Counted from the stretch's first letter, positions 3,842-46,604 are shown. The stretch is DNA of 64,000 bases from Podarcis liolepis (GCA_965112155.1 OZ218098.1), one strand, 5' to 3'. Numbers and translations: made by a program. The notes: generated by a model not told the origin, from the letters alone.

Positions 3842-4005
3842 CTGTGGTAAAAAACCCACCCAACAACCTATGGATCATTGCTGCAGTGTTGGCTCCCATT
3901 GCTGTGGTTACAGTCATCATCATCATTATCACGGCAGTTCTGTGCAGGAAGAACAAAAATGACTTCAAGGGAGACACCATGATGAACCTACCACAGAGAG
4001 CCAAA
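3842..4005 (+). CDS. KIAA1549L: KIAA1549L exon B, transmembrane exon: (P)VVKNPPNNLWIIAAVLAPIAVVTVIIIIITAVLCRKNKNDFKGDTMMNLPQRAK
   Basis: Acceptor tatacag|, donor AAA|gtaagt; 164 nt, phase 1->0; hydrophobic helix followed by basic stop-transfer RKNK. Confidence 0.95.
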
Positions 4006-4737
4006 GTAAGTAATTTTCATCCCAGGCTCAGGAATGGGAATTTCTTCTTCAGTGTTACATTCTCCATCATTCTGTACTTGAAGAACAAGATTGTGCTCTC
4101 TTTGGACAGATTTTACTAAACCAGTAAGACAATAAATACTCTGTGCTCAGAGACAGAATGAAGCCGTTCCCATTTATAGGCTTCCACCCAAGTGCAAGGC
4201 AATCTTTATAGTGTAAGTCCCTGTGAAACGGAGGAAGTACTAGCTGCTTAATGTGTCTTCAGAATAACCTTTAAAAAACCCTTTTTTCAACCATACAGGT
4301 TGAGCAGACATTATTGGGAGGAGGGTTAGAAGGGAGTACTGAATAGAATATGTGATTCACAGCAATATGCTTCCTGATAACTGCTACTGTTCAGTTCTTT
4401 TTGCCAGGGAGTCTAAAAAGGCCATTATCAGGTGTTTGAAACACTCTATTAACTTACTAGTGCCTCATGACCATAATAGAACAGCATGGTTGAAATAATA
4501 GATATTCACCAGTTGTGCCTGCATGCCAAAGAAAGAAACGATCTAGCTCTTACCAGGTCAAAGTGGTGAATAAAATATCCTGATCAATATCAATCACTAC
4601 TTCTAAGTTTTGTAGAAGTTTTTATTCTAGATACTAGGTACTAGTCACATCTAAAAGGGAAAGCAAGACAATCATTTAAGAAAAATATAGAAACCTTATT
4701 AAAATGTTATGAAATAAAAAAATAAAAATAAACAGTA

Positions 4738-4977
4738 CATTCAACTCTTATCTTACGCGATGGTTATGTTTCAAGGATAGTGCATAAAGCCAAAATGGTG
4801 CATAGTCAAAACACACTCTCCCTGCACTTTTGAATGCATGCTCAAGGTGAATGCAATGGCAGGTGGAATTGCTTATATCCCCCCACTGGATGCCTGCTCC
4901 CCTTTTAATTTTTTTTCAGCCAAGTGAATAAAGCTGAATTCACACAAGCTAAATGAGCCTAAGTTGCGGGTGGACTA
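4738..4977. mobile_element. Old, degenerate Tigger-like MITE
   Basis: Decayed inverted ends (tacattcaactcttatctta vs reverse complement tatagtccacccgcaactta, 13/20 matches) with TA-like flanks. Confidence 0.35.
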
Positions 4978-7900
4978 TATACATTAATAGTTTGTCTCTT
5001 TCCTGATTTTGATAATAAAATCATATCAATTTTATACAGTTTAAATGCAGAAATAGCAAAAATGGATAGCACACCCAGGTGTCACAATTTCTTTTTTTTT
5101 TATTTTGAAATGGCCAGAAATATGATTGGAGTCAAAAATCTGAGCTACATGCTTTTTTGTAGAACAGATTCATAAGTAGTGAAGCAAACAATAGGGAAAT
5201 CCTCAACATTTTTTACCTCCATTTGGCTGAACTGAAACTGGAGGTTGAAAGTTCATAGGAAGCAGCAGGTTTCTGCCTCAAGTGGTGCTACCTCACCTGA
5301 GTCTGAAAATAGATTGCAGTTGTTGTGTTCTAGGAAAGCTTATTGTTTCCTGGATGGTTCTTAGGGGCTTGTCATTGAGAAGATCCTTGATGACAGATAA
5401 GCTTTCATGAAACATCTGCCTATGGTTTGTTTGTTTGTTTGTTTACTTATTTATTTGAATGTATCTATTTATTGAATTTCCAAATTGTCCAATGACAGAA
5501 ATTCTCTGGGTAGTTCTCAGTACGTATAAAAATAGAAAATAATGCATACTTATGAAATATGAACGGTACAATATAAAGCCGGAATAAAAATACAATGACA
5601 GATGAAACAGCAGTGCAAAAGGTATAAACCCCACACATGCACATGCACACACACATAAATCTACGGAACACTGAAGCACTTTCCTAAAAGGCCTGGCAAC
5701 GCAACAGAAAAACTACAGTGTTGGCACCAAGTGAGTCTCTCTAAGGAGAGCATTCCACATTCAGTGTTGGAATGTGTTTGAGTTTACTTGGTGAAGTTGA
5801 AGATGTCTTGCCAGCAACAAGAAGTGCTTGTATGGCCTTGAATGTTATCTGGAGTCTTCAGATTCAGCTTTGGGAACCTTCTTTTCTTCTCTCTCAGCAC
5901 CATGGTCCCCCTCCAAACAATCGCCTCTTCCCTGCGGCTAAAGTTTACTCTTGAAAAACAGCAGATGATCCTCTGGGTACATATCCTGGCTTACATCTAG
6001 TTTGCTCTTTACTTCATTACTCTGGCCAGCTTCTGTACAGTTCGGAATTCTGTGGGTTAGTAAAGGCTCTTGCCATGAATATAAAATTTGGATAGTATAA
6101 TTAAAGGAACATTTGTGCACAGGGATAAGAGGATAAAGGTCCTTCCTGTTTTTGATTTATGTGCTCTAGTGTAAAATGTTTGATTAATGAAATTAGAAGA
6201 ACATTTTGTTTTCATTTTAGCCTGCCTGGAGTTTTGGTCTGTCAGGCATAACAGTAATCGTAATTGCTAGCAAATTATTAAGCGTAAAATCTTGGCAATG
6301 CAAATAGTTGCCAGTAATATGTGCTGAGTGTATTTAAATAGACTGTGTGTTGTTTCTCTAGTTGCAAAAATGCCTGAAACTACTTGAGCACTGCAAGCCT
6401 TCTGGATGAAAAATCTGTTCTGTGAATATGGCTGAAGTGGTTTGTTTATTAAAATTATGCTTATGAAATGACGTTATAATCTGTGTATATTTAAAATCTA
6501 TTGATTAGGACGGCTGCTGCTGAGGGTAATTTGTGAGCCTTTGCTCTGCAAAATATAATGTTTCAAGCCTTCTGAAAAGGAACCTTCTTGGCTTGCTGCT
6601 TTTATTCTTGTGGAGTGTTTCTATTTTATTTGCTCTGCTCTGCTTGCTTTGATTTCACATATCAAGGGGGAACAAGGAGAGTGGAACTGCATAATCAGTG
6701 CTGCAGTCCTGCTGCTGCTAAGAGACTCCTATGCACTGCAGCTCTTTGCACAGAAGGGCTGCCTGCTGGACCACCTTTTAGAACTCTCCCTTTGTGAATG
6801 GAACTAAGCGAATTATTGAAAGGATAGAGGGGTAATGAATCCTTTGGCATTAAATGTTACAATGTGCAGCAGGTGAGGGAAGAGATTTGGTGTGCCCCCC
6901 CAGGCCGTCCTGTTAAGGACAGCTCTTTAAAGGAAGCTGGGCAAATTGAATGTACTCGGAAAAGATCAAGTCTAGGATCTTGAGAGTTCCTAAATCCTTT
7001 TGTCATTCTTGATTGCTTTAACAATAAGGATGGTCTGTACTACACTTACAGACATTTGTGTCAACTGAGTTCAACCAAAAAGAAAAGTGGGGGAAGTGAG
7101 GTTTTTGGCACAAGAAGTGAATGAATGCACATAAGCATGCTCTCCAAAATAAGGGCATCTGTCCTTGTTAAACTTATGAGGGTTTTTTGCCTGATAGAAA
7201 CTGAAATACATTGCAAGGGTTGACTATTGAATGTGTTGGATTTCAGCTACATTATTTTATGTTTTGATGTGGAGGCTATCTGTGTTAAATCTCTGTTCAT
7301 TTTAATTCATTGCATGATTTTAGAGAATTTAGTGATTTTATATCTGAAGGGCAAGGAAAGTCAGGTGTATGTACCCTGTACCCTGCGCTCTTATGACAGA
7401 TAATGTGTGCCTGTTGGCTTAAATGTTGCTGTTAAAGTAATTAAATGAGTACATTTCTGTAGAGTTCCATTGCAAGGGCATTTGCATACTTTTATGTTCA
7501 CAGAACTGTTCATCTGACAGTATTCAGTCAGCTTCAGTTCTCTACTGTGATATGAAATTACAATGCTGAAATGATTTTTGTGGTTTATTTCTGGAGTTCA
7601 CACATTTCCTCCCCATTACTGTATTCCTGTGTAGCTGTTGCCAGAATGGAATAAACAGTTTTGCCAAGTAAACCACAGAAGTAGATTGAAGCTCCACCCT
7701 AATTAGGTCTCTAATGTGAAGTCCTTTATTATTCAGGAGCTTCTTAGTGTCAGAAGCTTGCCCCCCTTACTTTTATGTCAGATTATTATACTATTATTAT
7801 TTTAAAAAATAATAATCCCCACAGTCCAGAATATAGTGTGAAAGTATATGATAGGGAGGATGTATAGTGGCACTGAAAGCAGCTACCCTGTGAGGATCTC

Positions 7901-8695
7901 CTTCTCTCCTGGCAAATCTCAATATGCAACGTGATGTCTAGTGTTGAGAATCCCTACACTCTGCAAACAGGAGTCTGTGAGCTAGAATTGAAGACATGCT
8001 CAACACAATTATGTCATTGGGGGAGGGGGCAGTCTACTTTTAACATTATTGTTGACACCTGTCAGTCTCAAGGAGTGCGCCTTTGTGGGTGAAGCCAAAC
8101 CGTTGGAGGTTTACAGCGCCTGCTGTGGCTGTAGAGACCAATACTGGAGAGACATGTTTCATTGCAGAAATTAGAGTGGCTAAAAAATAAGGATAAAGGG
8201 TTTCATTGCACAGTTGGCAACATATTGATTGCTTTCTGACAGGTGAATTTAAAAACCTTTAATTTGTATAAAAAATGTTCTGTGCATTAAAAGTTGAAAG
8301 AAGGTGAGAAACGTTATTTTTCAGTGTCTTACTTCATTTTGAGAAAGAAAAACCTATCCTCCCCCCAATGGCATGCCATTGAATGTGCCTCTTGAATGCC
8401 CATGCTGCAACCAGGGTCTTTGTTTTTGTTTTTATAGAATATTCAGGTTCATTGGAAACCTGTGATTTGTGATAGGAATGAAAAAACACTTGACAGGTTT
8501 GACTCTAAAATAGCTCTGCTTATTGATTGTTTCAGTCAAAATGTCACAACGGATTCATCAAGTGTTGTCCTCATTGCCCTCTACGTGTTTTAACAATTTC
8601 CCCTAAGATGGAACTGGAGCTTTTCCTTCAAATGGCTCTGACAACAGAAGTGTCACTGGAATGTTCTTCTAGCTCGGTTTATGTGAAACATTGTA

Positions 8696-8999
8696 CAGTG
8701 GTGCCTCGCAAGACGAAATTAATCCGTTCCGCAAGTCTCTTCGTCTTGCGGTTTTTTCGTCTTGCGAAGCACAGCTATTAGCGGCTTAGCGGCTATTAAC
8801 GGCTTAGCGGCTTAGCGGCTATTAACGGCTTAGCGGCTTTAAGAAAAAGGAAACAAACTCGCAAGAACTCGCAAGACGTTTGTCTTGCGAAGCAAGCCCA
8901 TAGGGAAATTCGTTTTGCGGAACGACTCAAAAAACGGAAAACTCTTTCGTCTTGCGCGTTTTTCATCTTGCGAGGCATTCGTCTTGCGAGGTACCACTG
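8696..8999 (-). mobile_element. Tigger/pogo-like MITE family 1, copy 2
   Basis: Same TIRs, TA on both sides, opposite orientation to copy 1; central TTAGCGGC/TATTAACGGC repeats. Confidence 0.9.
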
Positions 9000-9325
9000 T
9001 AATAGGGTTTCACATTGGTGATGGAGGACAGTCCAAAATTGGAAATAAGATTTGAATATCTAATGTCATAGGTCTGCCTCCTGAAGCCGTTTCAGATGGG
9101 ACTGAAACTCTCCATATTCTGGACCAATCTGAAATTAATCCATTTTATGTCTCTAATATGAGCCATCTATGCTTCCCACTATCCCTAGCAGAAAGGCAGA
9201 AGGGCAGACCCATGGCAGCCATAAGGCCTCAGGCTAAGTATCTATACTCTCTTCCAGTATTTATGGCTGCTGTGATTCATCCATTTCAAAGTACATTGAA
9301 GTGACCCCACTCAGTCAGAATTCAA

Positions 9326-9361
9326 GTATGTATGTATGTATGTATGTATGTATGTATGTAT
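9326..9361. repeat. (GTAT)9 microsatellite
   Basis: Read directly. Confidence 0.95.
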
Positions 9362-9891
9362 AAAATACAACATACGTAAGTTTAGAGATGGTATACCTGT
9401 GAAATGTTGCATGCATCAGTTGAATGTAATTGATCGTCACAAATTACAAAAGTGGAGTTATTGTTTTCACGAAGCAGGTTGTGCTCTGCATAGTAGACAA
9501 TTTCAGCCCATCTGTAAAGTTTAAAAATGGATATGTTCCAGCAAGTTGCTAATACAAAAGGCCTGAAACATGATTTTATTGTTTTGGCATGCCATTTAAT
9601 GTCACATTTGTTCCTTTATATTTTGGAGTAACACAAGGGTACAGCTTAATATTTCAAAACCATTTTGTTCTGGGTGATATAAGCAACAGTGTTTGAAGAA
9701 GACACTGATTTCATCAAGGTCAGAGTATCTCCCACTGCATTTCCATCTTATATCTTTGGGGGATTGCTGTGTCTGTCTAAGAAACATTGGACTTTTTTAT
9801 GTAGAAAAAATCTCCTGTTGACCTGATATGACTTGTGAAGCAGACAATAAGCTGGTACATTTTCTGTTTCCTTCTTCTTTCCCATATTCTG

Positions 9892-9893
<2 letters not shown>

Positions 9894-9960
<67 letters not shown>
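9894..9960. repeat. (CT)n microsatellite with one interruption
   Basis: Read directly. Confidence 0.95.
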
Positions 9961-10553
9961 TATGGATTTGATTCCAATAAATCATTTGTCTGCTTAAAAA
10001 TAGAGCCATTCTAAACATTGTTTCTCTGTAGTTTGAAGCCCCTTTTTTTACTCTAAGCTGCTGCAAATTCTTGGTGCAATGTTCTTCCTCCATTGACCTC
10101 ACAGCTTAATTGGCCTACACTGCTATTAAATTCTGTTGGCTGTGGCAGCCACCTTATCATCCATGATTATCCATGTCATGGATGCCTGTAAACAAAACTA
10201 CATGGGTCACCACAGCCAAAGAAGAAAGAAGGAAATGCCACCAAGGAGAATAGTATTGGGATGAGACACATGGGTTTGCAACAAGTGCCAAAACATGGAT
10301 GATGCTTTCAGAATCACAAAAAGGAGTTCTAAAGAAGGCATGTACTTTAGACTCAACAGTAAAATACTTAAAAACGAATGCAGCTACTTTCCCATTAATT
10401 CTGTTTCCACAAAAGCATTAATAAATATGAGTAGTTTTCCCTTCACTCTTAGGTACATACAATGTGCATCTCTGGCTAAATCTTGAATTGTACAATTAAA
10501 AATGTATTAAATGTATATCTGATTCAGAACTCCTTTGTTTTCTGTACCTGCAG

Positions 10554-10744
10554 CCAGTCCAAGGATTTGACTATGCCAAGCAACATTTGGGCCAACAGGG
10601 AGCTGAAGATGAGGTTTTGCCTGTAACCCAAGAGACTGTAGTATTGCCGCTTCCAGTGAGAGATGCTCCTGCCTCTCAGGAGAGGGAAATTATTCAGGAT
10701 GGAAGCACTGCTAAAATTGCAAAGTCCAATGACACAAGAAAGAG
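10554..10744 (+). CDS. KIAA1549L: KIAA1549L exon C: PVQGFDYAKQHLGQQGAEDEVLPVTQETVVLPLPVRDAPASQEREIIQDGSTAKIAKSNDTRK
   Basis: Acceptor tttctgtacctgcag|, donor GAG|gtaagt; 191 nt, phase 0->2; family motif GFDYAKQHLGQ. Absent from the ORF track. Confidence 0.94.
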
Positions 10745-10832
10745 GTAAGTATTAACAGCAGAAGAAACACCCTGGTAATTCGAAACTACTGTGGAATTTA
10801 CAACCATTACAGTGCCTATATAATGGTCTTTC

Positions 10833-10854
10833 GTGTGTGTGTGTGTGTGTGTGT
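10833..10854. repeat. (GT)11 microsatellite, ~90 bp downstream of exon C
   Basis: Read directly. Confidence 0.95.
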
Positions 10855-12948
10855 AGAGATATTGGAGCCAGAGTGATGGACTGCTATATTGATTAGCTAG
10901 GCTTCCTACAGAAAATATTACTATTATAATATATTTTTGCAAGTTCTTCTTGTTCGAGGGATATTGGTGAATGAAAAGTGACTTTCTACATTTTGTTAGG
11001 TGGCCTTCCATTTTATATAACCACTTACCTGCCTTGCTCAATTTTTTTGTTCTCAATTGTTTGTTTGCTTAGTACAAATGATAAACTGAAACTTAAGTCA
11101 AATAAGATGGATATGGTTCATTAGCCCAGGGACATGGAATTGCTCTATCCTCTAATGGAGCAGTTTCACAGGTTGGGAGTCAACTAGTGAGTCCTGTCAG
11201 CGAAAGCCCTGTACAGGGACTTCTGCTTGCACAATGCAATGTTCTTCCTCTCCTCCACTGGTGTCTCCTGAGAGTGGCTCTGGGGGGAGGGGACAGAAGA
11301 ACCCCTGGAGCAGTGCACCATTGTGGGCAAGGGGGGGGGGGTATAACCTTACTTTTAAGCCAAATACTTGCCCTGAAGGAACAATCGCCTAGGCGTGACA
11401 CTGAATTCCTCCCACAGTTTGTGAGTTCTCCTAGATCCACCTTTATCATTGGAGACATTCTTTGGATTTTCCTCCTCAGATGCCAGACTTGTCTTCAGTC
11501 ACCTCAGGCTTCTCTGCATTGTCAGAAAGATGAATATTTGGAGATAACATAGTTTCCGCAATAGAGATGTAAGAGATTTGATTTGTTTTTATTTTATCAT
11601 GGCAATTTACAAGAGTAATGCAACCAAAATTATAGGTCCATTTCCTGAGGATCTTGCGAACTCAGTTTCAGCATCTCAAGGGAAGGAGGTCCAAGTGTAA
11701 CATACAGAGAATGTGCAGAAGTATTATTAATTTATTTACCGTTTTATGCCCAGATAGTTTCTCTACTCAAACTTCAGATTTATTTCAGTAAGGGTGAGGA
11801 CTTAAAGTGGGTGGGGGGAAGACTGCAGAAAATATAGACTTAAAAGGATCTTAAGAGAGAGTTTTGCTAAGCTAAATGGAGCTCCTCCGAAGGACCTGCT
11901 TATTGAACATTTATCCTGATTTGCTTGCACAAAGCTTACACAGAGGTTAGATTATATCCACTCTTTATTACACATTCATTCTGCATTTTTTGAGGGGCAG
12001 TTACACTACAGCGAGCATTCATCTTGATTTGTTTGTGTGGTGTTTACATTTCCTCCCGATAGCCATTAATCCACACCTTTTCAATGAATTTACCTGTCAC
12101 TTTCCAACTGAAATAGACAGGGTTTTTTTAATTAGTGAAGTAGTTCTGCCGGGGCAACAGAGCAGTTTAATCCTCCTTAAATGTGCAGACCTAAAGTTCT
12201 GGTATGCGGCTGAATCAGTCCCATGATGCCTTGGAGGTGCTGCAGATAATTACTGCATCAGTTCTAACCACAGACTTGAGGCTACCTAACAGCTGTAGAA
12301 ATTGTTTACTTTCTGTCAGACCAAAGATTCTTTAATTATAAAGATAAACTTGTCTTATAATTATTTGAAAATGCCCTTGTCTTATGCTCTGACAGTGATT
12401 GCTCCTTGACTTGACAGTAGATTACCAGAACTTGTTGCAATGAAGGAGTCGTTGTTGATTTGCTTCCTTCCTTCTGATATCAATACTACTAAGGGAAGCT
12501 ATCTCATATTACATTTGCATTTGTAATAGTACTACCAAGTTTCCCTTTAAAAATAGCATCCTTATAATTTATCACCTAAGCCTTTTGCTAAAACAGTTAG
12601 AACTGCATCTCACATCACACTTAAAAGACATAGATATGGGAACTTGAAGCTCTCCCTAACAGCCTTACAAAACTTGAGGAGTCTAATGTTCTACAAGACT
12701 AGGAAGGGGAGAGACACACCAGCTGTGACTTATTGCCACCCTCCTTTTCTTTTGTGTTTATTGTTTACTGTGTTGCTTCTGTGGACAAGGAAGGGGGAAG
12801 GGTTTTTTGTTTTTGTTTTTTGCTGTGGATGCTTGTGGGTTAGATTAGAAGGGGTTGGTTGCTGTATTCTCTTGTTAGCTTTATTGTTCAAAAATATGTG
12901 TGCATAAAACTAACCCATACAGAATATGCATACAAGCCTTTAGTTGTG

Positions 12949-13021
12949 GTTCCTGCATTGCAGGGGGTGAACTAGATGACCCTTGGGATCCCTTCTAACT
13001 CTACAGCGCTTTGATTCTGTG
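12949..13021 (+). mobile_element. CR1 extreme 3' tail (a second one near 16184-16235)
   Basis: cctgcattgcagggggtgaactagatgacccttgggatcccttctaactct...gattctgtg, typical CR1 terminus. Confidence 0.65.
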
Positions 13022-13616
13022 TACGAAAGCGTGCAAAATTGTATTGAGAATATGCATTCACAATTGAATATCTCCTCTTTTTAAATGTCCAGTGATACAA
13101 GACAATCTTGCAGAGGCTAAAAAGGGTTTTTTCCTCCTCATACAGCGCCTATAAAACAATTTTTATTGCAAAGCAATTTCTTTTACTATGCAGTTATAAA
13201 CACAGCTGCATACAGACTCCATACATGACGAACAGAATGAGAGTGCAGCCATATTTCTGAAAGAGTGCAAGGAGAAAGAGTTGTGCAGTCAGAATGCTTT
13301 AACGGCCTCTGTATTGGGGGGAAAGTGACTTTTTGTCCTTTGCAATATTTTCCTTTATCTCTGTGAGTTTACAAAGGAGATGCATTCAATTGTGAATGCA
13401 TAGAAATCTTTCTAAATTCTGAGCTGTTAAGAAAATGTACTGTGGATGCCTCCTTGATTTTATTGTGTTTCTTTATTGCAACATTTTTATCTTTCTTTTT
13501 GTATAAGAATCAGGCTTGAGAAGTCAGCGATGCAAACCAAGCTAATGCAATAACCTTGAAATGAGAAATATGCAGGAGAAACTTACAATCTTCCTTGTTG
13601 CTATGGTTACTTGCAG

Positions 13617-13744
13617 CAGGTCGCCTAGTGAGAACGGTTCTGTCATCAGCAACGAATCAGGAAAGCCCAAGTCAGGCAGAAGCTCTCCACAGAAAGTAAT
13701 GGCACAGCAGAAAGTGACAAAAGAGGAGGGAAGAAAGAGAAATG
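13617..13744 (+). CDS. KIAA1549L: KIAA1549L exon D: (S)RSPSENGSVISNESGKPKSGRSSPQKVMAQQKVTKEEGRKRN
   Basis: Tandem acceptor ttgCAG|CAG|g, donor ATG|gtgaga; 128 nt, phase 2->1. Confidence 0.92.
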
Positions 13745-14980
13745 GTGAGAAATGTTTCCTGATGAGAGATCTACTGTATAACTGCCATTTCTCCCATGGA
13801 GATATGCTGCCACAGAATATGCAGCATTGCAAGCCACTCTTTTTTTTATGCCCTGCAAATAACAACCCTCCATGCATCTATTCTTCTCTCTAGCTGTGTT
13901 TCCTCTCTTTGTTTATACACATTTCTCTGCTCTATAAAGCTATCCATTCATCACTAAGCTCAATATTTGTTCAGACTCTTGAATCGTTGCAATCATTGGC
14001 TTGTTTTCATAGTACATTAAGAAAATGGGGTACAGTGGTTTGTATTCATGTACCTGGATTTGTATCCATAGCAAATAGCCCTTTTTTGTTTTGTTTTCAG
14101 TGTGGCTTTCAATTCCCCCAGATCTGATAGCATGCCTTAATTAGGCATAGCTGGATGTTAAGGTGTGGTGGTCCATAGTGCTGATGATTCTTTGTTCTTT
14201 AGGCACCCTCCTTTTTCTCTGTCTTTGCTAAGGTCCTAAGCTAAAGAGCACCCCCTAAGAGTCTCATTTTTCACATTGAAGCTGTAGGCTTTGTGATTAA
14301 TAGTGTACCAGCTATAGTTAATGAGAACTGGATATTAATTCCCAGCATTTTGTGATTTATTTTTCGCTTGCTTACTGCTCTTCCTGAGTTTTGAATGTTG
14401 TATACTGTCTTGTAAACTAATGTGTGAAATCAGTCATTTTTAAAAATTTCTTGCTATCTGATTATCAGTGAATGGCTTGATCTTAAAACTTGCAGCTCCA
14501 TCTTAAAAAAATATATGTGGAACGTACTATATTTTGCACTAATGTAGACTTACAAAGCTTGCATTGCAAACAGCATTAAATATGGTTTTAAAGATACTTA
14601 ACTGATTGCAGATGTTTAGGATCAATGTTTGTCCTCCATCTTCAAAGCACTTAATCTGGAAAAGATCCATTGAACTATGTAGTAGTCCCCTGAGTAAACT
14701 GTCCCCTGAGAACACTGTAAAATATGAATCCTGCAGTGGGTATAGATTCCTGCATTTATAGCAATTATGAAATCTTCTGCTTGCAAGACTGATATCAAAA
14801 TCCACATGAATCACAATGGAACTAGCAAATGGTAGCAATTTGAAAGAAAACGGCATGCTGTTTCCCATAGATCCTTCCTGAAAGTATTGAAGAAACACCA
14901 TTTATTGTCCACTTGTCTGTATTAAATATGTTAGTGAGGATGTTATTTTCTGTTTTGTTTCTTTTTTCTGTGACATTTAG

Positions 14981-15004
14981 GTTTTAAATCCTCAAAGAAA
15001 ATTG
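14981..15004 (+). CDS. KIAA1549L: Candidate 24-nt alternative microexon of KIAA1549L (adds GFKSSKKI)
   Basis: About 40-nt AG-free U-rich tract, tttag| acceptor, TTG|gtaaga donor; phase 1->1, no stop. Confidence 0.65.
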
Positions 15005-17186
15005 GTAAGAGATTTTAGTTTCTTAATTAAAACTATACTAATATTTCATTCAATTCATAATTGCTACAATTCTAATGCATCTTTACAATCACTATAATGG
15101 CTACTAAAACCAGTATTTCGCTATAAGGAGTGTGGGTGGATGGGTGGGTGATAAATCCATGTATTTGAACCCTGCTCTGAGAATTTAGCTACAGTGAAAT
15201 ATTTTGCTTGTGGGCAGAAAAGATCATGTAATCGTGGCTTGATTTGCTTGTCTACACAGAAGTCTCTAGAGACTGTGCTCTGTGTTGCACCCAGAGGACT
15301 CTGTGGTGTTTCCTCCCCAAATATTTTTCACCCCTCTCAAAAATGTCTCACTGAGAGGCCTCCCCCCTCCCATTCCCACTAGCCCCCCTGAGCAAGGGAG
15401 AACTCAACGTAACCTCATGTAACTTCACTGGATTCCAGTTTATCAAGGGGTTGCCAGGCTTTGGGGGCCAGTGGTAATTTTGAGAAAGTGCCATGAGCAC
15501 CAGTCACAAAATGGCTGCCGGGAAGGGTCATGGTGGTGTGATACAAAAAAAGCTGCTTTATGTGTGTGGTGTACTGGTTGCCACATCTAAAAGAGCAGGA
15601 AAAGAGACAGGACCACAACTTCAACCCTATCATCAATGGGGAAAGGCAGTTACATCAGCCACCCCTGCACTTGCTCAGAGAGTTCAGTTCTTTCCCCTCT
15701 TCTCTGTTCAGAACTGGGGGGGGGGGGGAGAGAGAGAGAGTGGATGGCCAATCCTGGTATCTAATGAAAGGTGGGCATGTTAGAGGGGAGATTTGATGTA
15801 TGCGACACCGAACCAATGCAGACAAAACTGAGCAGAAAGAGCAAGCAATCACTTGTGCATAATGGATTTTTGAGGGGATATATACTGAGACCTTTAGCAG
15901 GTTCCATAGGAGGTACTGGCAGGCTCACTGGTACCCAGAGCACCACATTAGTAAGCCCTGCTGTGCATGCAGATCAAGCAATCAATATAGAGGCAAGACA
16001 CCTGAATATTGTTTATAAAGTTCTGCATGTTCATATTAATATAGCTGTCAAGGTTGACCTCAGAACCAGAAATTTGTTGCTCCCACAAGTTTCTGGGCCA
16101 AACTCGAAGCCTCTTACAGCCGTTCATGTCCAGGAGGGCCAGCTTATATTTTGAGAATACTAAATATTCAGAACTATTTCTGAAGGGGGTTGGAAGAGAT
16201 GACTTCAGGGTCCATTCCAACTCTTCCATTCAATGAAGGTGCAATTCTGATATTTACCATATAGAACATAGAACTGAAAGCTCCCAGTTCTAGCTTCAGC
16301 AGCTTCTTACCAGTGGATAATTACTCAGTAGGCAGACTGAGCTCATGTTTAGGGCACCAGCAAAGCAGGGGCATGCACACACACACAAAAATTGTTAAAT
16401 AATTATTTGATATTTCAAAATAGTTACCATGCGAAAAATCAGAACTTCCTTACACCCCACAGCACACTCTTCCCCCATTTTTCTGTTCTCTTTTTGTTAC
16501 TTATGTTGAATCACCCCTTCAGCTCTATCAAACTTGGGGCATCTGAGAGTTAAATACACAGTTAAACAACAAATCTAAAACATAGCCCCTCCACAAGGAC
16601 AAAACTTAGGCCATGGTCTACAGCTGGAAACTGTAGCAGAAACATAGTTCCAGCTGACTATACATTAGAAATTCCTGAATATTGCAGAGTCTTTACTTTG
16701 GTCCATTTCTTATAATCAACACTTGTCACTTGGGTATTGAAACAGTTCAACGTGTACTACTGTACTCCTCATATTTTTAGAGCATTCGCTCTTTTATAGA
16801 TTTCACCTATATTAACTAAATTTCCAGGCAGACCTGATAATTTTTACACCTCCCTCCTTTTGTCAGACTCCATTAATGAAATTACTATCCAAGTGGCAAA
16901 ATACTTTGCTTCAGCGTGCATTACGAGGAACCGTTTGATTAAATCTCCCCACCAGCCCTACTAGCGTTCAGCAACCCTTTCTAGGTGACTGTGAATGTGC
17001 TGCAACCCCCCCCCCCAAATATCATTAGCCTTTCACTGTGCTGTCAATTCCTAACAGTCCTCCACTGTTCTGAAAATTGCAACTATACTTGTTTGACTGC
17101 GACTTAGTGGCTGAGCTGTGATGGTAATAAGAAAGAAAGAATTGCATTTGGGCAAGGGGGAACCGCAATCTTTTCAGTGCTTAGGG

Positions 17187-17322
17187 CAGGCATAGGCAAA
17201 CTCGGCCCTCCAGATGTTTTGGGACTACAACTCCCAGCATCCCTAGCTAACAGGACCAATGGTGAGGGATGAGGGGAGTTGTAGTCCCCAAATATCTGGA
17301 GGGTCGAGTTTGCCTATGCTTA
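17187..17322. mobile_element. hAT-type palindromic MITE (136 bp)
   Basis: Perfect 8-bp TSD GCTTAGGG (17179-86 / 17323-30); whole element is a fold-back (gggactacaactccc ... gggagttgtagtccc). Confidence 0.9.
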
Positions 17323-19347
17323 GCTTAGGGCCTCTGAAGGTCTCAATCTAGCTGCCTTCTTACACTAGTGTATGGCCAGGTTCAGACCTCTGTGACACTG
17401 GTGACATATGTACAGGCTTCTTCATTCACTTCAGTGGCAAGAGCGGCTTGTGTGGAGCTTCTGCCATTGAAATTCATTATTCTTGTTCATATTTATGCAC
17501 GAAAGTTCTGAAAGAGCTCTTGCACAGAGGCGTACCTACGGTCCCTTGCACCATTGGCAAGGAGCTGTATCAGTGTCCTGTTCCAACCCCCCCCCCGCCA
17601 CCCCCCCCAATAACTTTACTGCAATAGTCACATTGGAAATTACTACATTTTACATGACCCAAGTACCCGATGCATCTAGAGTGAGGGTGAGGCGAGGAGG
17701 AAGGGCAAAAAATTGCACGCCTTTGTGTCGTGGTGCAAGAAGGATGGGAAGCTTCTCCTGCATCACCGCATTGCCACACACATATGCCATGCACACCAGA
17801 GTCTCCAGTGGTCTACCTTCATGCTGCCTTGCCATTTCTTCTACCACTCGGGTTCCAGCTTTGTCTTAACTTATGACCTTACATACGTAACTGGAGACAG
17901 ATTTCTGGGGTTATTTTTGTCCCCCTGCTTGCGGTTTCACCAGCCCCTAGGTAGGCCTTGCTCCTGCATGACCAAATGATATCATCATGTTTTTGTTCTG
18001 TTCTTGCAGATATAAGGCTGTTTTTGCAAATATAAGGCTGCATACATTTAAATGACATTTGTTTTTCCAAAGAAATCTGAGAACTAGTTTATACTTTTCA
18101 GAGCTACGATTCCCAACACCATTAACAAATTACAATTCCCAGGATTCTTTGGGGGTGTATGGGCTTCAAATGTGTTTTACTTGTATGGCATGTACACAGC
18201 TTTATTAGCAAGCGGCAAGACCCAAGAAGCAAAGTATAAGCTGGAGCACACTTTGGCTATCTTGCTAAGCCTTTAATGTATTTTTTTCAGTTTTTAATGT
18301 ATTTCAGAAAATGCAGGATCTCAAAATCAGAATCTCTTTCTTATTCACTTTGGTTGATACAGACTCAAAGTTAAGATTGGTTCATCAGTTGTCATAGTAA
18401 CAGACCAATTTTAGAATCTGTTCTTCTGGCATTTAGTTAACAGAGGAAAGTGATAACATTTGGTTACTTTTAAAATATAAACTTTAGTGCAGCTCTGCTT
18501 AAAAGAGTCCCTCATTCAGGTGCAGATAAGCACACAAATAGGAAACAGTTGAAATGTACATTCAAGAAACACTTCACTGAAAGGCCAAGGGATGTAGCCA
18601 ATAAAGCTGTTTCATTGGCACAAGGACTTTGGCTTGTGCAACAAGACTTCCTCTTCCCATGCCCCCTCCAGATCTGCTCTAGGTTCCCCCCTCCCCAACC
18701 AACCAGAGAAGATTAGGGAAGGGGAGGGTTAGGAAGTTCCATTCCATAGGCTGAGGTCCTTGGGCTACTGGGCAATTTAGCTGAACACCACCCTAACATT
18801 TTGGGAGAGATGACCTTCTATTCATAGTTAGAATTGTTTGTTAGGATTTTTAATAGAAGATTAATTTAAAATCATTGTCTTTTATCGATCACGTCTTCAC
18901 GGGTCACTGTGTTTTCCCTCTCACTTTCCTGCTAATAAAGACAGAGCAATGTTTGCTACAGCCAAATTCTGAATGTGCCTCTTCATAATATTAAAAATTG
19001 TGTTCCTTTTTGTAGATGTGCTGCAGTAACTTAAGTTTAATCCTGGCCAATGAATATAGAGTTGGCAAAGTTCACATAAGATTCTGGACTTTTTTGCATG
19101 ATGGAGGAATGATGCATCTCCGTCTCTCTCTCTCCCCTCCCCCAACCTTCCACCAGTCAGATGATATGACATGTGAGCTGGGCACTCCATGTTGGTGCCT
19201 GCTCATGTGAAGGTATCATTCATGCAGGTTTTCTCATATACCTTTTGTTTTGAGGAAGAAAATGCTATCAATTAGCAGCAAAGGATTTTATGGTGAAAAG
19301 TACCTGTGGTTTTAATTTGAGTTATGCAGTATCTCGCATTGAGTCAG

Positions 19348-20372
19348 TGGCAGACAATAATTGTGTCTATAGACATTCAAAAAGCTTTCAATAAAGTATG
19401 TCACCAAAGGTTCCTAAGTAAGATTTGTAGTCATGGAATGAGAGAGCAGGTACCCTTATGGATCAGTAACTGGCTAAGAAACAGGAACCAGAGAGTAGGA
19501 AGAAATGGACAGTTCTCTCAATAGAGGGATGTAGAAAATAAGGTCCCCAGAAGATTGGTATTGGTATCTCCAAACTTGATAAATGAGTACTAAAATAATG
19601 AAATCATTGTAAACAAGTGTAAAGTGATGTACATTGGGGCAAAATATCTTAGTTTCCCATATACACTGATGCGTTCTTAGCTGACAGTCACTAACAAGGA
19701 ACAAGACCTTAGGGTTGTAGGGTCGCTCAAACATCGTGACCTGATAAAGACTGTGTGGCAGCTGTGGAAAAGGTGAATTTCATATCCGGGATCATTAGCA
19801 AAGGGACTAAAAATAAAACTGCCAATATCAGAATGCAGATCTATACTACACTTGGAATACTGTGTACAGTTCACATCAAAGGATACTGAAGTGTTGGAAA
19901 CAAAACTGATCAAGGGATGGTCAACTGCCCAGTGCGGAAAGGCTGTGACATTTGGGACTTTTCAATTTAGAGAGAAGGCAAGTTAAGTGAGAATGTGATA
20001 GAAGTGTACAAGACTATGCATGGTGTAGAGAAATGTTTTTATCCATTTATCATGGATACTAGAACTCGGGGTCATCCATTGAAGCTGAATGTTGGGAGTT
20101 TCAGGACAAATAAAAAGAAGCACTTCTTCAAACAAAGCACATAATTAAAATACGGAATTTGCTTCTGCTGGGGAGGCTTAGGTGAGTTCATGGAAGATAA
20201 GGTTAAGTTCTCCCACCACTGTTGGAAGCAGTATCCCTTTATCTATGAGTTGCGGGGAGAGTGCAGCTCAGGCCTTGCTTCCTATAGGCATCTTTTAGGA
20301 CATCCTGTGAGAACAGGGTGCTAGATGAGATGGCCACTGGCCTGACCCACAAGGGCTCTTAATTATCCTTAA
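19348..20372 (+). mobile_element. CR1 LINE fragment (degenerate RT region through 3' UTR, internally deleted)
   Basis: Translates as IDIQKAFNKVCHQRFLSKICSHGMREQVPLWISNWLRNRNQRVGRNGQFSQ, then KCKVMYIG-type motif and CR1-like 3' end; stops and frameshifts. Confidence 0.85.
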
Positions 20373-21814
20373 TGGGCGTGTGTTTGCAAATTCATTTTCC
20401 AGGGGTTTCTTTATCACCTGCTGCATTTACACACATGATAAACAGTGTCACTTGGTCTTGAAACCTGTGCATGTGGTGTCTGAGCTCCCAAGGCTAGCCT
20501 GAGAGCCTTTCTTGCTTAGCTGCCTTCTCCACCAACATGCCTTTGTAACCTTGGTCTCAGATTGTTTGTTCTATCAGTTGTAGGTAGGATGGGGTGGGCT
20601 GCGTGAGACTCTCTGCAATCCTAAGAGGTAGTGCTTTTCTAGAAACATGATTAATCTCAACAGAAAAGTGCCAGTGCAATATGCAGAATATTTCAGTGAA
20701 ATTCTAGTTTCTATAGTAACTAGCCCCTTCTTCCTCTAGTAAATGGTTAGTGTTGCTGTGCTTTGGAAATGAGTAGGAGGATGAAATGAATATAAAAGGA
20801 CACTGTAGAGCTGTGTACAAGCAAAGTAAAATAATAGCTTTAGCTGAAGGCTGTTTCCCTTTCCCCCTTCATTACAATACGCAACATACACAAACAGCTG
20901 TTGCCCTCCCCATAAAGATGAACATGTTTTTTCCATAGGAATAAAATAAAACTCATTAAGGCTCCACAATTTTAAGTGAAGGCCTTTAGAATTAAGTTTG
21001 CCGTAGTCTATTCAAGTACATTTCAAAATTCTGAACATGCTGTACTTTCTGCTGTCAAGATAGTTTTTTGTGAAATTATGGCAAAATGTGGGCAATCCAG
21101 TATTTTGCCCCAGCCCCATAATAGGCTCCATGCACTTGTGAGAGCCTATTGGTGATTTACATGTTGATGATTGTGGAGCTTAATCAGATTCTTCTGAGCA
21201 AACTTTGTGAAGTCACTGTGAAAGAGATAGATAAGACCAAACATAAAACTGCCCACAGTGTTTGCTTACAGTTCATTGCCATCTAAATGACAGCTTAACT
21301 TTGCCAACATTTGTAAACCACATCTTGATTTTATCACTCATGTGTCAGTGAGATGAAACACAAGAATAAAGTCAGATTTGTAATTTAAGTGACATTTACC
21401 GAACAAGTATTCTGTTCCAAGGATGAGAGAAATTCCTTTTCCAGCTTTCTTATACAGTATTATCATAGTTTAAGGCTCAGATTTTCTCACATTTAAATAA
21501 TTAATTTTGGCGTTGTTTTCTTCTTAAGATATGTGTTGAGGCTGTATGTTAAGGCTAGCTTGAAAGTTTGTGCTGAAACATGACACACAACGTTGAAAAA
21601 AAATCAAAAAGCAGGATTCTGACTAAATGAAGGAACTGGGCTTGCTTATTATGTATGTGGTCGATTCAAATCAAGTCTTTAGAGAACAGGATAGAAAACA
21701 CATAAAACACATTATTAGGATGTGTTTACTAATGTCATGGTGATGTCTGGTCATTTTATACCCATAGAAAGTAAGTGTAGCCCAGTCTTGTACATGTTTA
21801 CTGAATTCTCAAGG

Positions 21815-21905
21815 TAGTTGTAGCCCTAACTAGATCTACTCAGAAGTAAATCCCATTGAATTCAGTGGGACCTGATCTCAGGTTAACGGGATTAGGATTG
21901 CAGTT
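21815..21905. repeat. Short ~90-bp palindromic interspersed repeat (relatives near 22308-22401, 23722-23808, 47680-47760)
   Basis: Centre gaagtaaatcccattgaattcagtgggac with self-complementary arms recurring at several sites. Confidence 0.55.
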
Positions 21906-24900
21906 TTAGTTTTTATAGGACTACTGCCTTGACATAGTTATTTTCTTCTTTATCCCTTATCCAATATAATCTGTTCATATGTTGTGATGAATACTTTTTT
22001 GCACTCATGGGAACTGTATCATTCAAGTGAGTGAAATAATGTGTGAATGAATAACAGCATCTGGGATCTCTAGTACTTTTGAGTTTCTGTGGTTGTCAAC
22101 AAATGTATGTTGAAGACTATGGTAGTTACAGCAGTTAAGATTCCATTTACAGGAATGTAGCCCCAAAGTAGCTTTAATGGGTTTAAGAATAGGCCTAGTG
22201 ATAACATCTACAGTCTCTGATAAATGGATTTGGCCAGAGATCACTACGCTGACCTCCAGGTTTAGTAGTCATATGAATTACTACAACTGAAATGGTATAA
22301 GAGTATAAGGCAGCAATCCTGTAGCCATCTCCCTGAGAGTAAGCACTATTGGACTCAATGCAACTTGCTTCTGAGCAGACATATATATAGAATTGTGCTG
22401 TAAAACAAAGTCTGAAAATAATTTAGAAAATGCTATTATGCTGCATGTTTTCATAAAAGAAGATATAACAGATTCAATGCCCTTGAAATTGCATGCCTTT
22501 TTGAAAGGGGACCCCCCAAAAAACACCCACCCAGCAGTTTTCTGTGTTAATTGGCACTTTTCCAGTCAAATGGACTGTATAATTTCTAAACAGAAAATGA
22601 AGCAGAAAGGATTCTATAAATATATTAACATAATTTGGTTGAGTTGTGACCCTTAAATTCTTCCTTGGAGCCTACCCCATGTTATTGTCTTGAGTAAACT
22701 TTCCAGTTGCCAACATCTGTCTTCCACACATGCAAATGCTACCGATACTGCTAATAAGAAATCCAGTGGATTTCTTTTCTTCCATTAGGTTCCATTAACT
22801 TTCTCAGGTAGCTGCCCAAACCTGAATAAAAGGATTTTGCATCACTGTGTCAAAGTTTCTCCAAGAGTGAAGCACCCTAGATCGTGATGGTAGTGATGAA
22901 GATGATAATAATGGTACAATAATATTCATTATTTGTATAGCACCTACACCCAAGTACACTGCTTTCAGATCTTACAGGCTTTCAATCTAAAAAAAACATG
23001 GACAAAGAGAAGGGTGAGTAAAACATAAAAGAATAAGGTGCATCTATTATGTTGTAAGAATAAAGTTTATTTTTTAAAATACAGCTAAAATTGAACTTGA
23101 TAGGTACAAAACATTATCTAAACATTCTGCAATCACAGATGAACTGTGAAAAATTGGGCAAATCAGGGTTTTTGGAATGTCAACATTTGTCAAACTTATC
23201 TTCAATCACATGTGCTCAGTCTCTGTGCAGCATAATGAAGTCAAAGGTTCTCAAGGTGGTAGAATGGATCAGTCAAAATATTAGAATATTGTTTTGAACA
23301 CCTTCCCCATACAGAGAAAAGAAAAAAAGAACAGCTCACTACAAATAGAAAATTGGCAGAATGGATAGAGGGCTTTCTGGAACCTTTTCCTTTTCTTCTC
23401 CAGTTTTTTTTTTGCCGGAGGACTTTTTAATGGATATGTATGTGGATTTAAAAATGGAAACCCCCTCACCCGCCCAATCTAAATTCTACAATCCATTCTA
23501 TTGTGTGAGAACTTTCTTATCTCATGTATTGGCCATGTCTTTATGGTGTGTGCGTGTATGAATGAATGAATGAATGAGAGAGATGGGTATAGAAGGTATT
23601 GTAATTGCTCTGGTGATTGACAAAAATTGGAATTTGATGCAAACATAACCCAGGTTCCCTGACTCTCATAGAAATCTACTGTATAGAAAGACACAAGAGC
23701 CCACTGACTGCAGGCTAACAAAGGCTGAAATCTAAACTCACCTGGGAGTAAACACCATTGATTTCAATAGGAGTTGTTTCCGAGTAGGCATGGTTAAGCT
23801 TGTGCTGTAAGTCAAACGAGTTATGAACCTGAGTTCTTTACACATGTGAGCAGGCTCTGTTTTGTAATTTGGAAGGGAGGATTTGTAGTTGGAGCCAGGA
23901 ATGTAAGAGACAAAGAGAAGCCCTGTATTTGGCGGAATAGATGAGTGTGAGAATTCCCATCTTCTACATTTGAATAACCCACAGACTGGGGGAAATACAA
24001 TTTTCCGTGGAAGCAGGGAATATCTCCATACTACCTGAATTGCATCAAGTATCCCTTCTCTTTTATGCGTTTGTAGCTGCCACTGAAAATCATTCTTCCC
24101 CAGTCTGAGAAAGTCCTCCTCATAATGATATGCTTTTCTGTTTCTTGGACCAAATGCCTCATTATGGTTCTTGTAATGTGTCATTTATTTTATAAATCAT
24201 GCAATTTGTGTATTGTTAAAGAAATAATGTTAAACTGAAGTAAAACAGAGGCTAAGTCTCATATTTCAATGAACAGAAATATCCTCCCTATTGGTAGAAA
24301 GCTATTTGGCAATGCCTACCTGTGCCACTCTTCATCCCAATCTCCTAAATATATTTGTTAGAGAAATGTGCAGTTCTTTTCCAAAAGCTTCTAAGAGACC
24401 TTTTTATGCACAATTTTGCAAACCATAAGGAAATTAATAAGAAGAAGCCTGAGATAACCTTTATACTTCTCAACAATTTAAGTAAGTTCCTGTCACAGCT
24501 GCTATAGACACTTATTTCCTGTGTGTGTACATGAGCTTCAGATCACTCTGAACATATAATGCAGGCATTGTTGGAACAGACCAACTTCATATCTTGATGG
24601 CATAAATTGACTTGCTCTGTAATTCTTACAGTAATTAAAAGAACAATAAATTTTCAGAGCAACTAAATCTTCGGAAATACAGGTTTGAAAATGCCAACCC
24701 GACAGTAATTTATTCTTTGATTATACTGGATACAGCACAAATATCACTCGGTTACATAACAGAATTAATTAAACTAGTTTGATAGGATCTCTACTTTTGG
24801 GTGGGTGGGCATGTAGGGGGAACAAAATACATGGGTGGCTATCTTGTTCCTCCTTCCTCCTCTTCTCTTCTTAGTGTCTGGAACCTGTAGTTTTGACCAG

Positions 24901-25719
24901 CTGTGGTTAGAAGAAAACCACAGTTCCTTGAGATTGTACATATTTGGGATCAGAGGTTTGTTTTAAAGTGAAAGCTTTCTCTCTCTCTGCTCTCACTTGT
25001 GGAGGAGGAGATGAGAGGGAGAGAATGCAAGGAAAGTGGTAGTAGTAGAGGTACTCATTCACCATCATCTTGATACCTGAATCAGGCATAAGACTCATTG
25101 AACCAGGTAGCAGGTACCTGTTAGGATAGCATTCAGATGACCAGTTTATTTTGCATTCATCCTGATTGTGTCCACAAAGTTTGCTGGGAGGTATATGATG
25201 TTGGTTATGATCTGTTTACAGGGAGATAATATGATTTTGCATCAAGCAATTGTTGTTGCACACTTTCCAGTGCATTTACTCATCACTTTCCTAACATCAA
25301 AAAGTCTGTTTTGTTTTGTTTTGAAAAAGAGGGTTTGTTGCACAAGAGCACCAAATTCACTTTAATTGCACCACCTGAAGGCTCGTATGCAATTGAATTT
25401 CACCCACAAAATAATTACTGTTTGTAAATGGCCCACACTGTACACATTGCTATGCCAACTCAGTGTCACAAAATATTGTTTAGCTTTCCATATGCAACAC
25501 CCCCCTTAAATGTTTGGAGTTTAATGCATTTCTTTCATATGATTTACCTGTATGTTCAGCAGCACAGCCTGTTTTAAAATAAACCCTCCTTTATTGAAGT
25601 ATCTGCTTAAATCATAATGCCTTGCATGACAAAACCCCCAAAAGATTCATTGGATTTGAAATCTAATGCCAGTGATTTTAAATATAGGAGGCTCATATAC
25701 AGAAAGTGTTTATTACAAT

Positions 25720-26014
25720 CCGGGGTCCCCAACCTTTTTGGAGCATGGAGGCACATTTCGAAATCCACAAAACCATTGTGGCCCCACCCAAAAACACATA
25801 TTTCACTGACAATAACCAGTGATACCCAGAACCCCCAGGCAAAACATGCACACCTACCCCAAAATAAATAGACAAAAAATTAGACAACCCCCAATGAAAC
25901 AACCATAAAATGCCAAAACTTGTTTTTTTAAAAATGAGAAGGGCTTTGGTGAGTAGCAGGGATATCTGTTTCTGGGGTGTTGTGGTACTCACAGGGACAT
26001 GTTGGGGACCCCAG
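25720..26014. mobile_element. Probable hAT non-autonomous element ending about 90 bp before exon E
   Basis: Inverted ends ccggggtccccaac / gttggggaccccag; attaca present on both flanks (imperfect TSD). Confidence 0.5.
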
Positions 26015-26105
26015 GATTACATGCAATTCATTTTCACTTTCCTCCTCACCAACTCAGAATTGAAATGCCCAAACCATATGCTGACTTAATCCTAATATGT
26101 TTTAG

Positions 26106-26284
26106 TGCCCATAAGTGATGAAGAGGAGGGAGATATGCTCTTTGATAGCATTGCCAAGTCTGCCATTGATCCCTTTGACACATCTTCTGGATCTGTACAG
26201 TTGATTGCCATAAAGCCTGTAGCTTTGCCTCCCGCACACACATCTTCGGATAGGAATCAGGAAACTGCTGTCCTTAACGGAGAG
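26106..26284 (+). CDS. KIAA1549L: KIAA1549L exon E: (V)PISDEEEGDMLFDSIAKSAIDPFDTSSGSVQLIAIKPVALPPAHTSSDRNQETAVLNGE
   Basis: Acceptor tgttttag|, donor GAG|gtaaga; 179 nt, phase 1->0; family motif VQLIAIKP. Confidence 0.93.
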
Positions 26285-27104
26285 GTAAGATTATATCCAG
26301 TAAAGTTGTGTAATCATTTATGCATTGGCGGGTCTTTAAAGCAAGTGCTCAGAGGAGCACTTGGCTACCAGATCCGATTGACACTGGTTGGAAAGCTAGC
26401 CTCTGGTGGGGAATGTTTTGTGACTTGTGGTGTTGACAGGTTGTATGTGGAGCTGCCTAAGAAAGGGCTAAAGACCATTCAGGTTGTGGCTGCAATTTCT
26501 GAAAGGAAGGATGAAAAAAGAAAGAAAGAGGGGGGAGTGTCCTCTGTTGCCTTTTGTGACTGCTAAGATGGGGTAATTTCATTATGGTGAAATCATGCAA
26601 AAAGTTATTTTATCCTTTTTGTATTGCCTTATGCAAAAATTATCCATAGTCATACTACTCAGTATGTATGACAAATGGAAGAAGAAGAACAGCAAAACTA
26701 CGAAGAGGGCCCCCTCTGTTGATCTTAGAATTTAATAATGTGTGCAGGGATGGAGGTGATTATCACATATTTGGTGGCCTAAGTTATTTAGGGCTACAAA
26801 CACATATGTGAGCAACTTGCATTGGGATCAGAAGTGAAGTAGCAACCAGAGCAGCTGTTTTAGAACAGTGGTTTTGTGAGTTCTCCACCCAAAAAACATT
26901 TTCTTGCTTTCACTTACTTGTACAAGAAGCAACAGTCAGTATTCAGCAATCCCCCCCATCAAAGCACCATATATATTTAATTACATTTAACTTTAAGGTA
27001 ATGTAAATTATATGAATTCTAAATGGAACCCCTGCCAGTAATCTGGCTGCTGCATTTTAGACCTGCTAAAGTTTCTGGGTTATCTTCAAGTGCAGCCCCA
27101 CATA

Positions 27105-27612
27105 CAGGTGTACGCCATAATCGTCAAAATTATAACAAAAAGGCTTGACATATCTTGCCTTGCATGTCATGAGTCCATCTCATATATTAGTTTCACCTTT
27201 TAAGTTGAACTACAGTGGTGCCTCGCAAGACGAAAAGAATCCGTTCTGTGATTCTCTTCGTCTAGTGGTTTTTTCGTCTTGCGAAGCAAGCCCATTGAAG
27301 GATTAGCGGATTAGCGCTATTAGCGGCTTTTAGCGGCTTTTAGCGGCTTATCTGCTGATCGGATCAGCTGATAAGCGGCTTAGCGGCTTAGAAAAAGGGG
27401 GGGGGAAGGAAAAAAAACCAGCAGGAACTCGCAAGACATTGTCGTCTTGCGAAGCAAGCCCATAGGAAATTCGTTTTGCGAAGCACCTCCGAAACGGAAA
27501 ACTCTTTCGTCTAGCGAGTTTTCCGTCTTGCGAGGCATTCGTCTTGTGGGGCACCACTGTACTGAAATAAATGAACTTTCCCACAATATTCTCATTTTTC
27601 AAGTTTCACCTG
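27105..27612. mobile_element. Internally deleted Tc1-like element (essentially one ~155-bp TIR), interrupted by MITE copy 3
   Basis: TA|CAGGTG ... GTTTCACCTG|TA; the right end reads as the reverse complement of a Tc1-type TIR start (CAGGTGAAACTTGAAAAATGAGAATATTGTGGGAAAGTTCATTTATTTCAGTA). Confidence 0.75.
27213..27559 (-). mobile_element. Tigger/pogo-like MITE family 1, copy 3 (inserted in a Tc1 remnant)
   Basis: TIRs and TA duplication (27211-12 / 27560-61). Confidence 0.9.
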
Positions 27613-27879
27613 TAGAGTGCACTACAATAATCAAATCTGGAAGTGACCCAAGTATAGAGTACAGCAGCAAATCATTTGTCCAAAAGAGGCCATAGCTGGC
27701 AAATGAGTCAGAGCTGGCCACTTGAGTCTCCAGTATACAGGAAAACTCCCAAGTTATAGACCAGTTTTGTGGAAAGGAAATTCCACCATCTAGGAACTGG
27801 CACAGAGAATGCATTCTGAGGGTTATGAAACTACCAAGAGGACTTCTGCTGATCTTAATACCTGTAGTTTCACATATTT

Positions 27880-46599: not shown

Positions 46600-46604
<5 letters not shown>

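Follow-up and report, generated by a model that had tools for sequence, protein, structure and literature searches.

A 24-nucleotide cassette microexon of KIAA1549L and the candidate sorting motif formed at its exon junction

KIAA1549L, a member of the UPF0606 family (Pfam PF12877), is a protein with a single transmembrane helix followed by a cytoplasmic tail. The window analyzed here, a 64,000-nucleotide stretch of Podarcis liolepis DNA, carries on its plus strand the 3' part of the KIAA1549L gene, whose last encoded residues are FEFQV. We take D630045J12Rik and C5H11orf41 to be aliases of the same gene. The intron between two of its coding exons, designated D and E, contains a 24-nt unit bounded by splice signals, and this raises the question of whether the unit is a genuine exon and, if so, what its inclusion does to the tail of the protein.

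Here, we describe a computational analysis of this unit, its splice context, its occurrence among vertebrate protein records, and its counterpart in the paralogue KIAA1549. The gene models confirm a frame-preserving, alternatively included cassette exon of KIAA1549L. The best explanation of the exon, to which we give an even chance of being right, is that its inclusion is likely under neural or sensory tissue control and likely activates a short, basic signal for sorting.

The microexon and its gene models

Twelve coding exons were placed between 518 and 58585 in addition to the microexon, and 11 of the 12 are 98-100% identical to one P. muralis protein. Exon E matches the KIAA1549L proteins of Podarcis muralis, P. 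lilfordi, and Lacerta agilis at 100% identity. The features of the gene that bear on the microexon are the following.

518..58585, plus strand: 3' part of KIAA1549L, 12 coding exons and the microexon
3844..4005, plus strand: exon encoding the single transmembrane helix, placed by its match to the P. muralis protein
13617..13744, plus strand: exon D, 128 nt, ending ...RKRN + G, with a phase-1 donor GTGAG; 100% identical to P. muralis protein residues
14939..14980, plus strand: microexon acceptor with a 40-nt AG-free zone and TTTAG, from the sequence
14981..15004, plus strand: 24-nt cassette microexon, GFKSSKKI, from splice sites and annotated proteins
15005..15010, plus strand: microexon donor GTAAGA, from the sequence
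15037..15061, plus strand: ACTAAT and a TAAT half-site, with YCAY at 15046 and 15055; not above chance
15089..15092, plus strand: third YCAY; not above chance
26106..26287, plus strand: exon E, starting VPISDEEE, with the acidic stretch and the x-P of the junction motif

The microexon (14981-15004) is situated between the end of exon D at 13744 and the start of exon E at 26106. The last base of its TTTAG acceptor is 14980, and the flanking splice sites read G/GTGAG after 13744 and AG/TG before 26106, the slash marking the exon boundary, with both junctions in phase 1. Its length lies within the 3-27 nt range of cassette microexons, its sites are AG and GT, and its inclusion keeps the reading frame, introduces no stop, and, together with the flanking bases, encodes GFKSSKKI. 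The decisive evidence is that annotated proteins carry this same sequence, matching the predicted inclusion product; coding for FKSSKKI occurs once across the six frames of the 64-kb window, at 14983. The initial annotation of this locus had proposed an in-frame, phase-1, 24-nt microexon without a stop, a proposal borne out by both the splice signals and the annotated proteins, and all of the coordinates that it gave, for the acceptor, the exon, the donor, the ends of exons D and E, ACTAAT, and three YCAY motifs, hold.

The splice signals were compared with chance by using the 60 plus-strand YAG-(3n, 3-51 nt)-GTRAG units that occur within the window. The pyrimidine fraction at the microexon acceptor (0.77) is the joint highest among these 60 units, and the unit with which it is tied possesses an AG-free zone of just 2 nt. 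The 40-nt AG-free zone is itself ordinary for this gene, because those at ten other KIAA1549L acceptors span 15-61 nt. The donor consensus is MAG/GTRAGT, from which the microexon donor, TTG/GTAAGA, deviates at positions -3, -2, and +6. An RNA structural switch was also considered and rejected, the folding of 14900-15110 being unremarkable (z -0.33).

The exon had initially been described as hidden in the intron and as one of a kind often missed by annotation. This part of the proposal does not stand, since both the Ensembl (A0A670HQ47) and the RefSeq (XP_077786269.1) models of P. muralis contain the insert. The P. muralis RefSeq isoforms X3 and X4 read RKRN-GFKSSKKI-VPISDEEE and isoform X6 reads RKRN-VPISDEEE, in which the exon is skipped. 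Among the P. muralis records, the insert is present in P0004, P0121, and P0483 (X3) and skipped in P0002 (X6), and the window-coded tails of X3 and X6 differ by the 8 insert residues only. Isoform pairs that differ solely by the insert are also found in chicken (X1/X3; XP_015141809.1 versus XP_015141811.1), duck (X1/X2), and Heteronotia (X1/X3). Inclusion and skip isoforms occur in the gene models of alligator and frogs as well, and 16 species in all have gene models of both forms. Among 120 of the 278 protein matches, those listed, 20 include the exon, 86 skip it, 6 have read-through residues, and 8 are without exon D; within this listed set, the insert is carried by 20 of the 112 records bearing exon D.

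The evidence for these isoforms consists of automated gene models (RefSeq XP, Ensembl, and GenBank). We infer that the models rest on transcripts, a basis strengthened by the existence of diverged forms of the insert that keep the frame; homology projection would hardly invent the diverged, whole-codon inserts of the frogs described below. It is virtually certain that 14981-15004 is a real exon. The annotated KIAA1549L isoforms of P. muralis and chicken have the same exon product and the same junction and represent the identical exon, as automated models only. Thus, the exon is already catalogued in public gene models, and it is an ordinary kind of microexon.

Distribution among vertebrates and in the paralogue KIAA1549

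Among the pooled protein records, counted as records rather than independent species, 66 have the insert at the D-E junction; they come from lizards, alligator, birds, frogs, and lungfish. It is carried by 9/14 lacertoid, 5/10 gecko, 1/4 anguimorph, 1/2 crocodilian, 29/131 bird, 20/27 frog, and 1/1 lungfish records; in this tally the sparrow read-through records P0114 and P0115 are scored as skips, and three Logan fragments stand outside the groups. The presence of the same insert in lizard, alligator, and bird protein records bears out the conservation in other amniotes on which the initial annotation had relied. The alligator, which is the crocodilian with the insert, has GFKSSKNI, and the lungfish has GFRTKKKI. 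In frogs the insert has a length of 9 or 11 aa, always a whole number of codons, and has diverged in sequence, as in GLTKQKRKI (Xenopus) and GFSKPKRNKKI (Engystomops), and skip isoforms are known from the gene models of five frog species. The conserved parts of the insert are the opening G-F/L, the lysines or arginines, and the closing K-I. From this distribution the exon appears to date at least to the lungfish-tetrapod ancestor.

Among placental mammals, the insert is present in 0 of 119 informative KIAA1549L records, 1 of the 120 records being without the junction. These 120 are the best of 421 matches to a vole query and are cluster representatives, mostly of rodents and carnivores; human, marsupials, and monotremes are not represented. 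By hand arithmetic, 0/119 at an expected rate of 20/112 has odds near 1e-10, a value that assumes independence, which does not hold for these records; loss of the exon in placental mammals is therefore likely. The insert was likewise found in none of 20 iguanian, 19 snake, and 5 informative turtle KIAA1549L records (a further turtle record, P0069, is without exon D), and in none of 2 scincomorph, 1 tuatara, 1 caecilian, 1 sturgeon, and 3 ray records. To judge from the gene models, placental mammals, snakes, and iguanians have probably either lost the exon or silenced it. Metagenome scans gave no match to orthologous D-E intron DNA.

Three departures from the usual structure of this region were observed among the same records. 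Four Zonotrichia models (P0109, P0110, P0112, and P0113) have GEN inserted instead, apparently through the use of a donor 9 nt inside the intron. The KIAA1549L records of five named teleosts (P0323, P0324, P0529-P0532, P0332, and P0335) are without the VP-SDEEE start of exon E and fuse the upstream exon directly to the DPYD region. Finally, the region is present twice, about 564 residues apart, in a model of the caecilian Rhinatrema (P0194), which reflects either a duplication or an assembly artefact.

KIAA1549, a retinitis-pigmentosa gene, possesses a cassette of 5 aa in Pogona, lungfish, and tiger barb (P0339 and P0501-P0521). It occupies the aligned junction, in a region where the paralogues align loosely and the anchors are the transmembrane helix upstream and a QLIA motif downstream. 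The cassette reads GINRV in 8/15 Pogona records, GKNKV in 2/5 full-length lungfish records, and GKNRI in 3/4 tiger barb records, and it is in none of 5 pika, 1 human fusion protein, 3 coelacanth, and 1 newt records. A 15-nt retina microexon of chicken KIAA1549, GgaEX1031894, is listed in Dataset S1 of PMC9303857 with PSI values of 24.55 (retina), 2.07 (neural tissue), and 0.13 (other tissues). This event is the sole KIAA1549 row in 18 supplementary files of that paper; KIAA1549L has no row in those 18 files, nor is it among the 75 chicken retina microexons, and the five chicken RetMICs on chr5 are all in other genes. The chicken event belongs to the sister gene and, at 15 nt, has the length of the cassette just described, but both the gene and the length differ from those of the 24-nt KIAA1549L exon. 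By its length and gene only, GgaEX1031894 would be the 5-aa cassette of KIAA1549. A 16-aa human retinal KIAA1549 exon, described in PMC10111803, was not equated with this cassette because its length differs.

The microexons of KIAA1549 and KIAA1549L share their position, their phase pattern (the opening G), and a closing [KR]-[VI], suggesting that a single ancestral microexon gave rise to both, the alternative being convergence. Perhaps, then, the microexon predates the duplication that generated the two genes.

No description of the 24-nt KIAA1549L exon was found in a search of full-text literature, which most subscription journals lie outside, and this negative is limited because the supplement of PMC12871342, which covers 347 chicken brain microexons, and four supplementary files of the VastDB paper may list the exon. 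KIAA1549L had no match in 23 of 27 supplementary files of the VastDB paper, where a control event identifier likewise went without a match, in the MicroExonator supplements, an uninformative result as the positive control Daam1 was also without a match, or in 12 zebrafish microexon supplementary files, which were searched with no control. The literature searched thus leaves undescribed how old the exon is, its KIAA1549 twin, the apparent losses, and the motif at the junction considered below. The history that emerges is of an exon retained between lungfish and birds, with a counterpart in KIAA1549, and apparently absent from placentals, snakes, and iguanians. Because neural microexons are generally portrayed as strongly conserved, the repeated loss of one would make a useful test case.

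Candidate function and regulation of the insert

The insert lies about 127 residues C-terminal of the single transmembrane helix, within the cytoplasmic tail, a placement that follows from the position of the helix in the exon at 3844..4005. Inclusion of the cassette would introduce GFKSSKKI into the tail beyond the helix, adding a second basic cluster and a K-I-x-P sequence across the junction. We propose that this basic K-I-x-P signal, switched on by inclusion, would alter the membrane sorting of KIAA1549L.

In the lizard, the sequence formed when the insert is joined to exon E is KIVP, and inclusion in the paralogue KIAA1549 forms R/K-V/I-G-P. The pattern [KR][VI]xP, which is our own relaxation of RVxP, short and picked post hoc after the sequences had been seen, is present at the junction in 62/66 KIAA1549L inclusion records versus 0/281 skip records, and in 13/13 KIAA1549 inclusion records. 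In the inclusion tail of P. muralis P0121 this is the one match, and the tails of P0002 and mouse contain no match. The motif is lost though the exon is kept in 4 of the 66, namely the alligator (NIVP) and three passerines (KIVA). Muroids (VT/AT/GT) and Pogona (VA), both of which show no insert, have also lost the proline at the start of exon E, as have passerines that retain the insert.

Of the roles considered, sorting or localization is the single most likely function of the insert, with a probability that we place just short of even. VxP and RVxP sequences are ciliary targeting signals in PKD2, ARL13B, and rhodopsin (PMC11240719, PMC10011728), and KIAA1549 has been reported at the photoreceptor connecting cilium (PMC10111803, PMC12969115). 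RVxP alone failed to bring an ARL13B fragment to cilia (PMC10011728). The insert resembles these signals in that a [KR]-[VI]-x-P sequence is made in a cytoplasmic tail, and the KIAA1549 inclusion form of Pogona has an exact RVGP, in a tail that contains a constitutive RVSP as well. It differs from them in that KIAA1549L has KIVP, which is two substitutions away from canonical RVxP and is lost in 4/66 records. KIAA1549L has been reported in the nucleus and in cytoplasmic vesicles (PMC4495688), and its placement in cilia was not found in the papers examined. The narrower reading, that the insert is specifically an RVxP-type ciliary signal, is unlikely. Should the junction motif prove to be a sorting signal, comparing the two isoforms would be a simple assay for this protein family, whose function is uncertain.

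The main rival is that inclusion tunes the tail electrostatically or through phosphorylation, with a longer basic patch beside SDEEE and added kinase sites altering phosphorylation or partner binding. The insert had been pictured initially as lengthening a basic, serine-containing patch of the cytoplasmic tail, of which the tail location and the retention of lysines stand but serine is not a conserved feature. Upon inclusion, the 30 residues ending in SDEEEG go from a net charge of 0 (Podarcis) or -1 (Xenopus) to one of +2, and the insert brings [ST]-x-[KR] matches (SSK and SKK) adjoining an S-x-x-E site, both patterns in the KIAA1549L tail being presumed kinase sites. The frogs keep lysines and arginines as the length of the insert varies, and charged residues are enriched in microexons generally (PMC13759335). 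Against such tuning, however, the Ser-Ser pair is missing from lungfish GFRTKKKI and from most frog inserts, and the KIAA1549 insert, with just 1-2 basic residues and without a following SDEEE, still shares the closing [KR]-[VI]. We consider tuning a possible function but a doubtful one. A loose MAPK docking pattern was dropped from consideration, as it matches the inclusion and skip isoforms alike.

Inclusion of the exon, whether it serves sorting or another function, is probably regulated by tissue, in neural or sensory cells. KIAA1549L has been reported as cortex-enriched in human (PMC4495688), and its microexon resembles the neural microexons controlled by SRRM3/4 in being a frame-keeping cassette of 3-27 nt with deep conservation and a pyrimidine peak 15-30 nt upstream (PMC9303857, PMC12871342). 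In neural microexons the pyrimidine tract peaks in that interval (PMC12871342), and upstream of the KIAA1549L microexon pyrimidines occupy 14/16 positions at -15..-30 versus 7/11 at -5..-15. The exon differs from this class in having no upstream UGC, the element named for SRRM4 (PMC9303857): TGC is absent from -60..-3, an absence shared with many brain-regulated microexons (PMC12871342). It differs further in being unseen in placental records and in having a frog orthologue of up to 33 nt.

An alternative, suggested by the ACTAAT and YCAY motifs downstream, is that the exon is real and under QKI or NOVA control, being included in muscle, glia, or neurons. These motifs are present where the initial annotation placed them, but control by QKI or NOVA is unsupported, the motifs being at chance level, and so is a specificity for nerve or muscle. 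ACTAAT, at +33, is followed 15 nt later by a TAAT half-site, an arrangement that we take to be QKI-like; such a bipartite site is present in just 4 of the 639 tiles, each 100 nt long, of the window, and the absence of UGC leaves room for a different regulator. Against 5000 dinucleotide shuffles of the same downstream 100 nt, which are 77% A+T, ACTAAY nevertheless gives P=0.29, three YCAY give P=0.20, and the bipartite QKI site gives P=0.14. We regard control by QKI or NOVA as having a low probability.

The most elaborate version of the ciliary reading is that a pre-duplication microexon builds an RVxP-type ciliary signal in both paralogues, that its splicing sets entry into the cilium in retina or brain, and that the copy in KIAA1549L disappeared separately in placentals, snakes, and iguanians. 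Taken as a whole, this scenario is improbable.

A minor explanation is that inclusion completes a nuclear localization signal of a released tail fragment. Bipartite-like basic pairs (RKRN...KK) are present in the inclusion form only, the frog inserts are very basic, and staining of KIAA1549L has been reported in nuclei (PMC4495688). The lizard sequence, however, is without a K[KR]x[KR] core and has a short linker, the KIAA1549 insert does not fit, and cleavage of the tail was not found in the papers examined; this explanation is quite improbable. The weakest explanation, that splicing noise or an annotation artefact has been copied across gene models, can draw on isoform evidence that comes wholly from automated models, most of which skip the exon, and on entire groups that are without it, but it has hardly any probability given an insert that scarcely varies among lizards, alligator, and birds, the diverged forms that preserve the frame in the lungfish and seven frog species, and a splice context that is the best among the 60 window candidates.

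Other features of the window

The microexon is not the sole cassette in this part of KIAA1549L. Two P. muralis records, P0004 and P0121, skip a 351-nt exon (117 aa) at 39155-39505, and chicken X5 skips its 116-aa equivalent. The acceptor of exon D is a tandem CAG-CAG (13614-13619), with the exon starting at 13617 or 13620, and could yield isoforms one residue apart. The C-terminus of the protein, FEFQV (58571-58585), is the majority ending in the family and presumably resembles a PDZ-binding motif; the C-terminal ending of the Heteronotia KIAA1549L models differs from it.

Two kinds of repeat are dispersed through the window. The first is an element of about 350 bp that occurs in both orientations, contains internal TTAGCGGC repeats, and is probably a non-autonomous transposon. 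The second is a palindromic, MITE-like element of 130-150 bp with arms of 55-63 nt and a spacer of 20 nt. Their copies are located as follows.

933-1298, 8693-9011, 27203-27571, 35015-35366, and 54290-54630, both orientations: element of about 350 bp
17182-17333, 29933-30010, and 33650-33801: palindromic element of 130-150 bp
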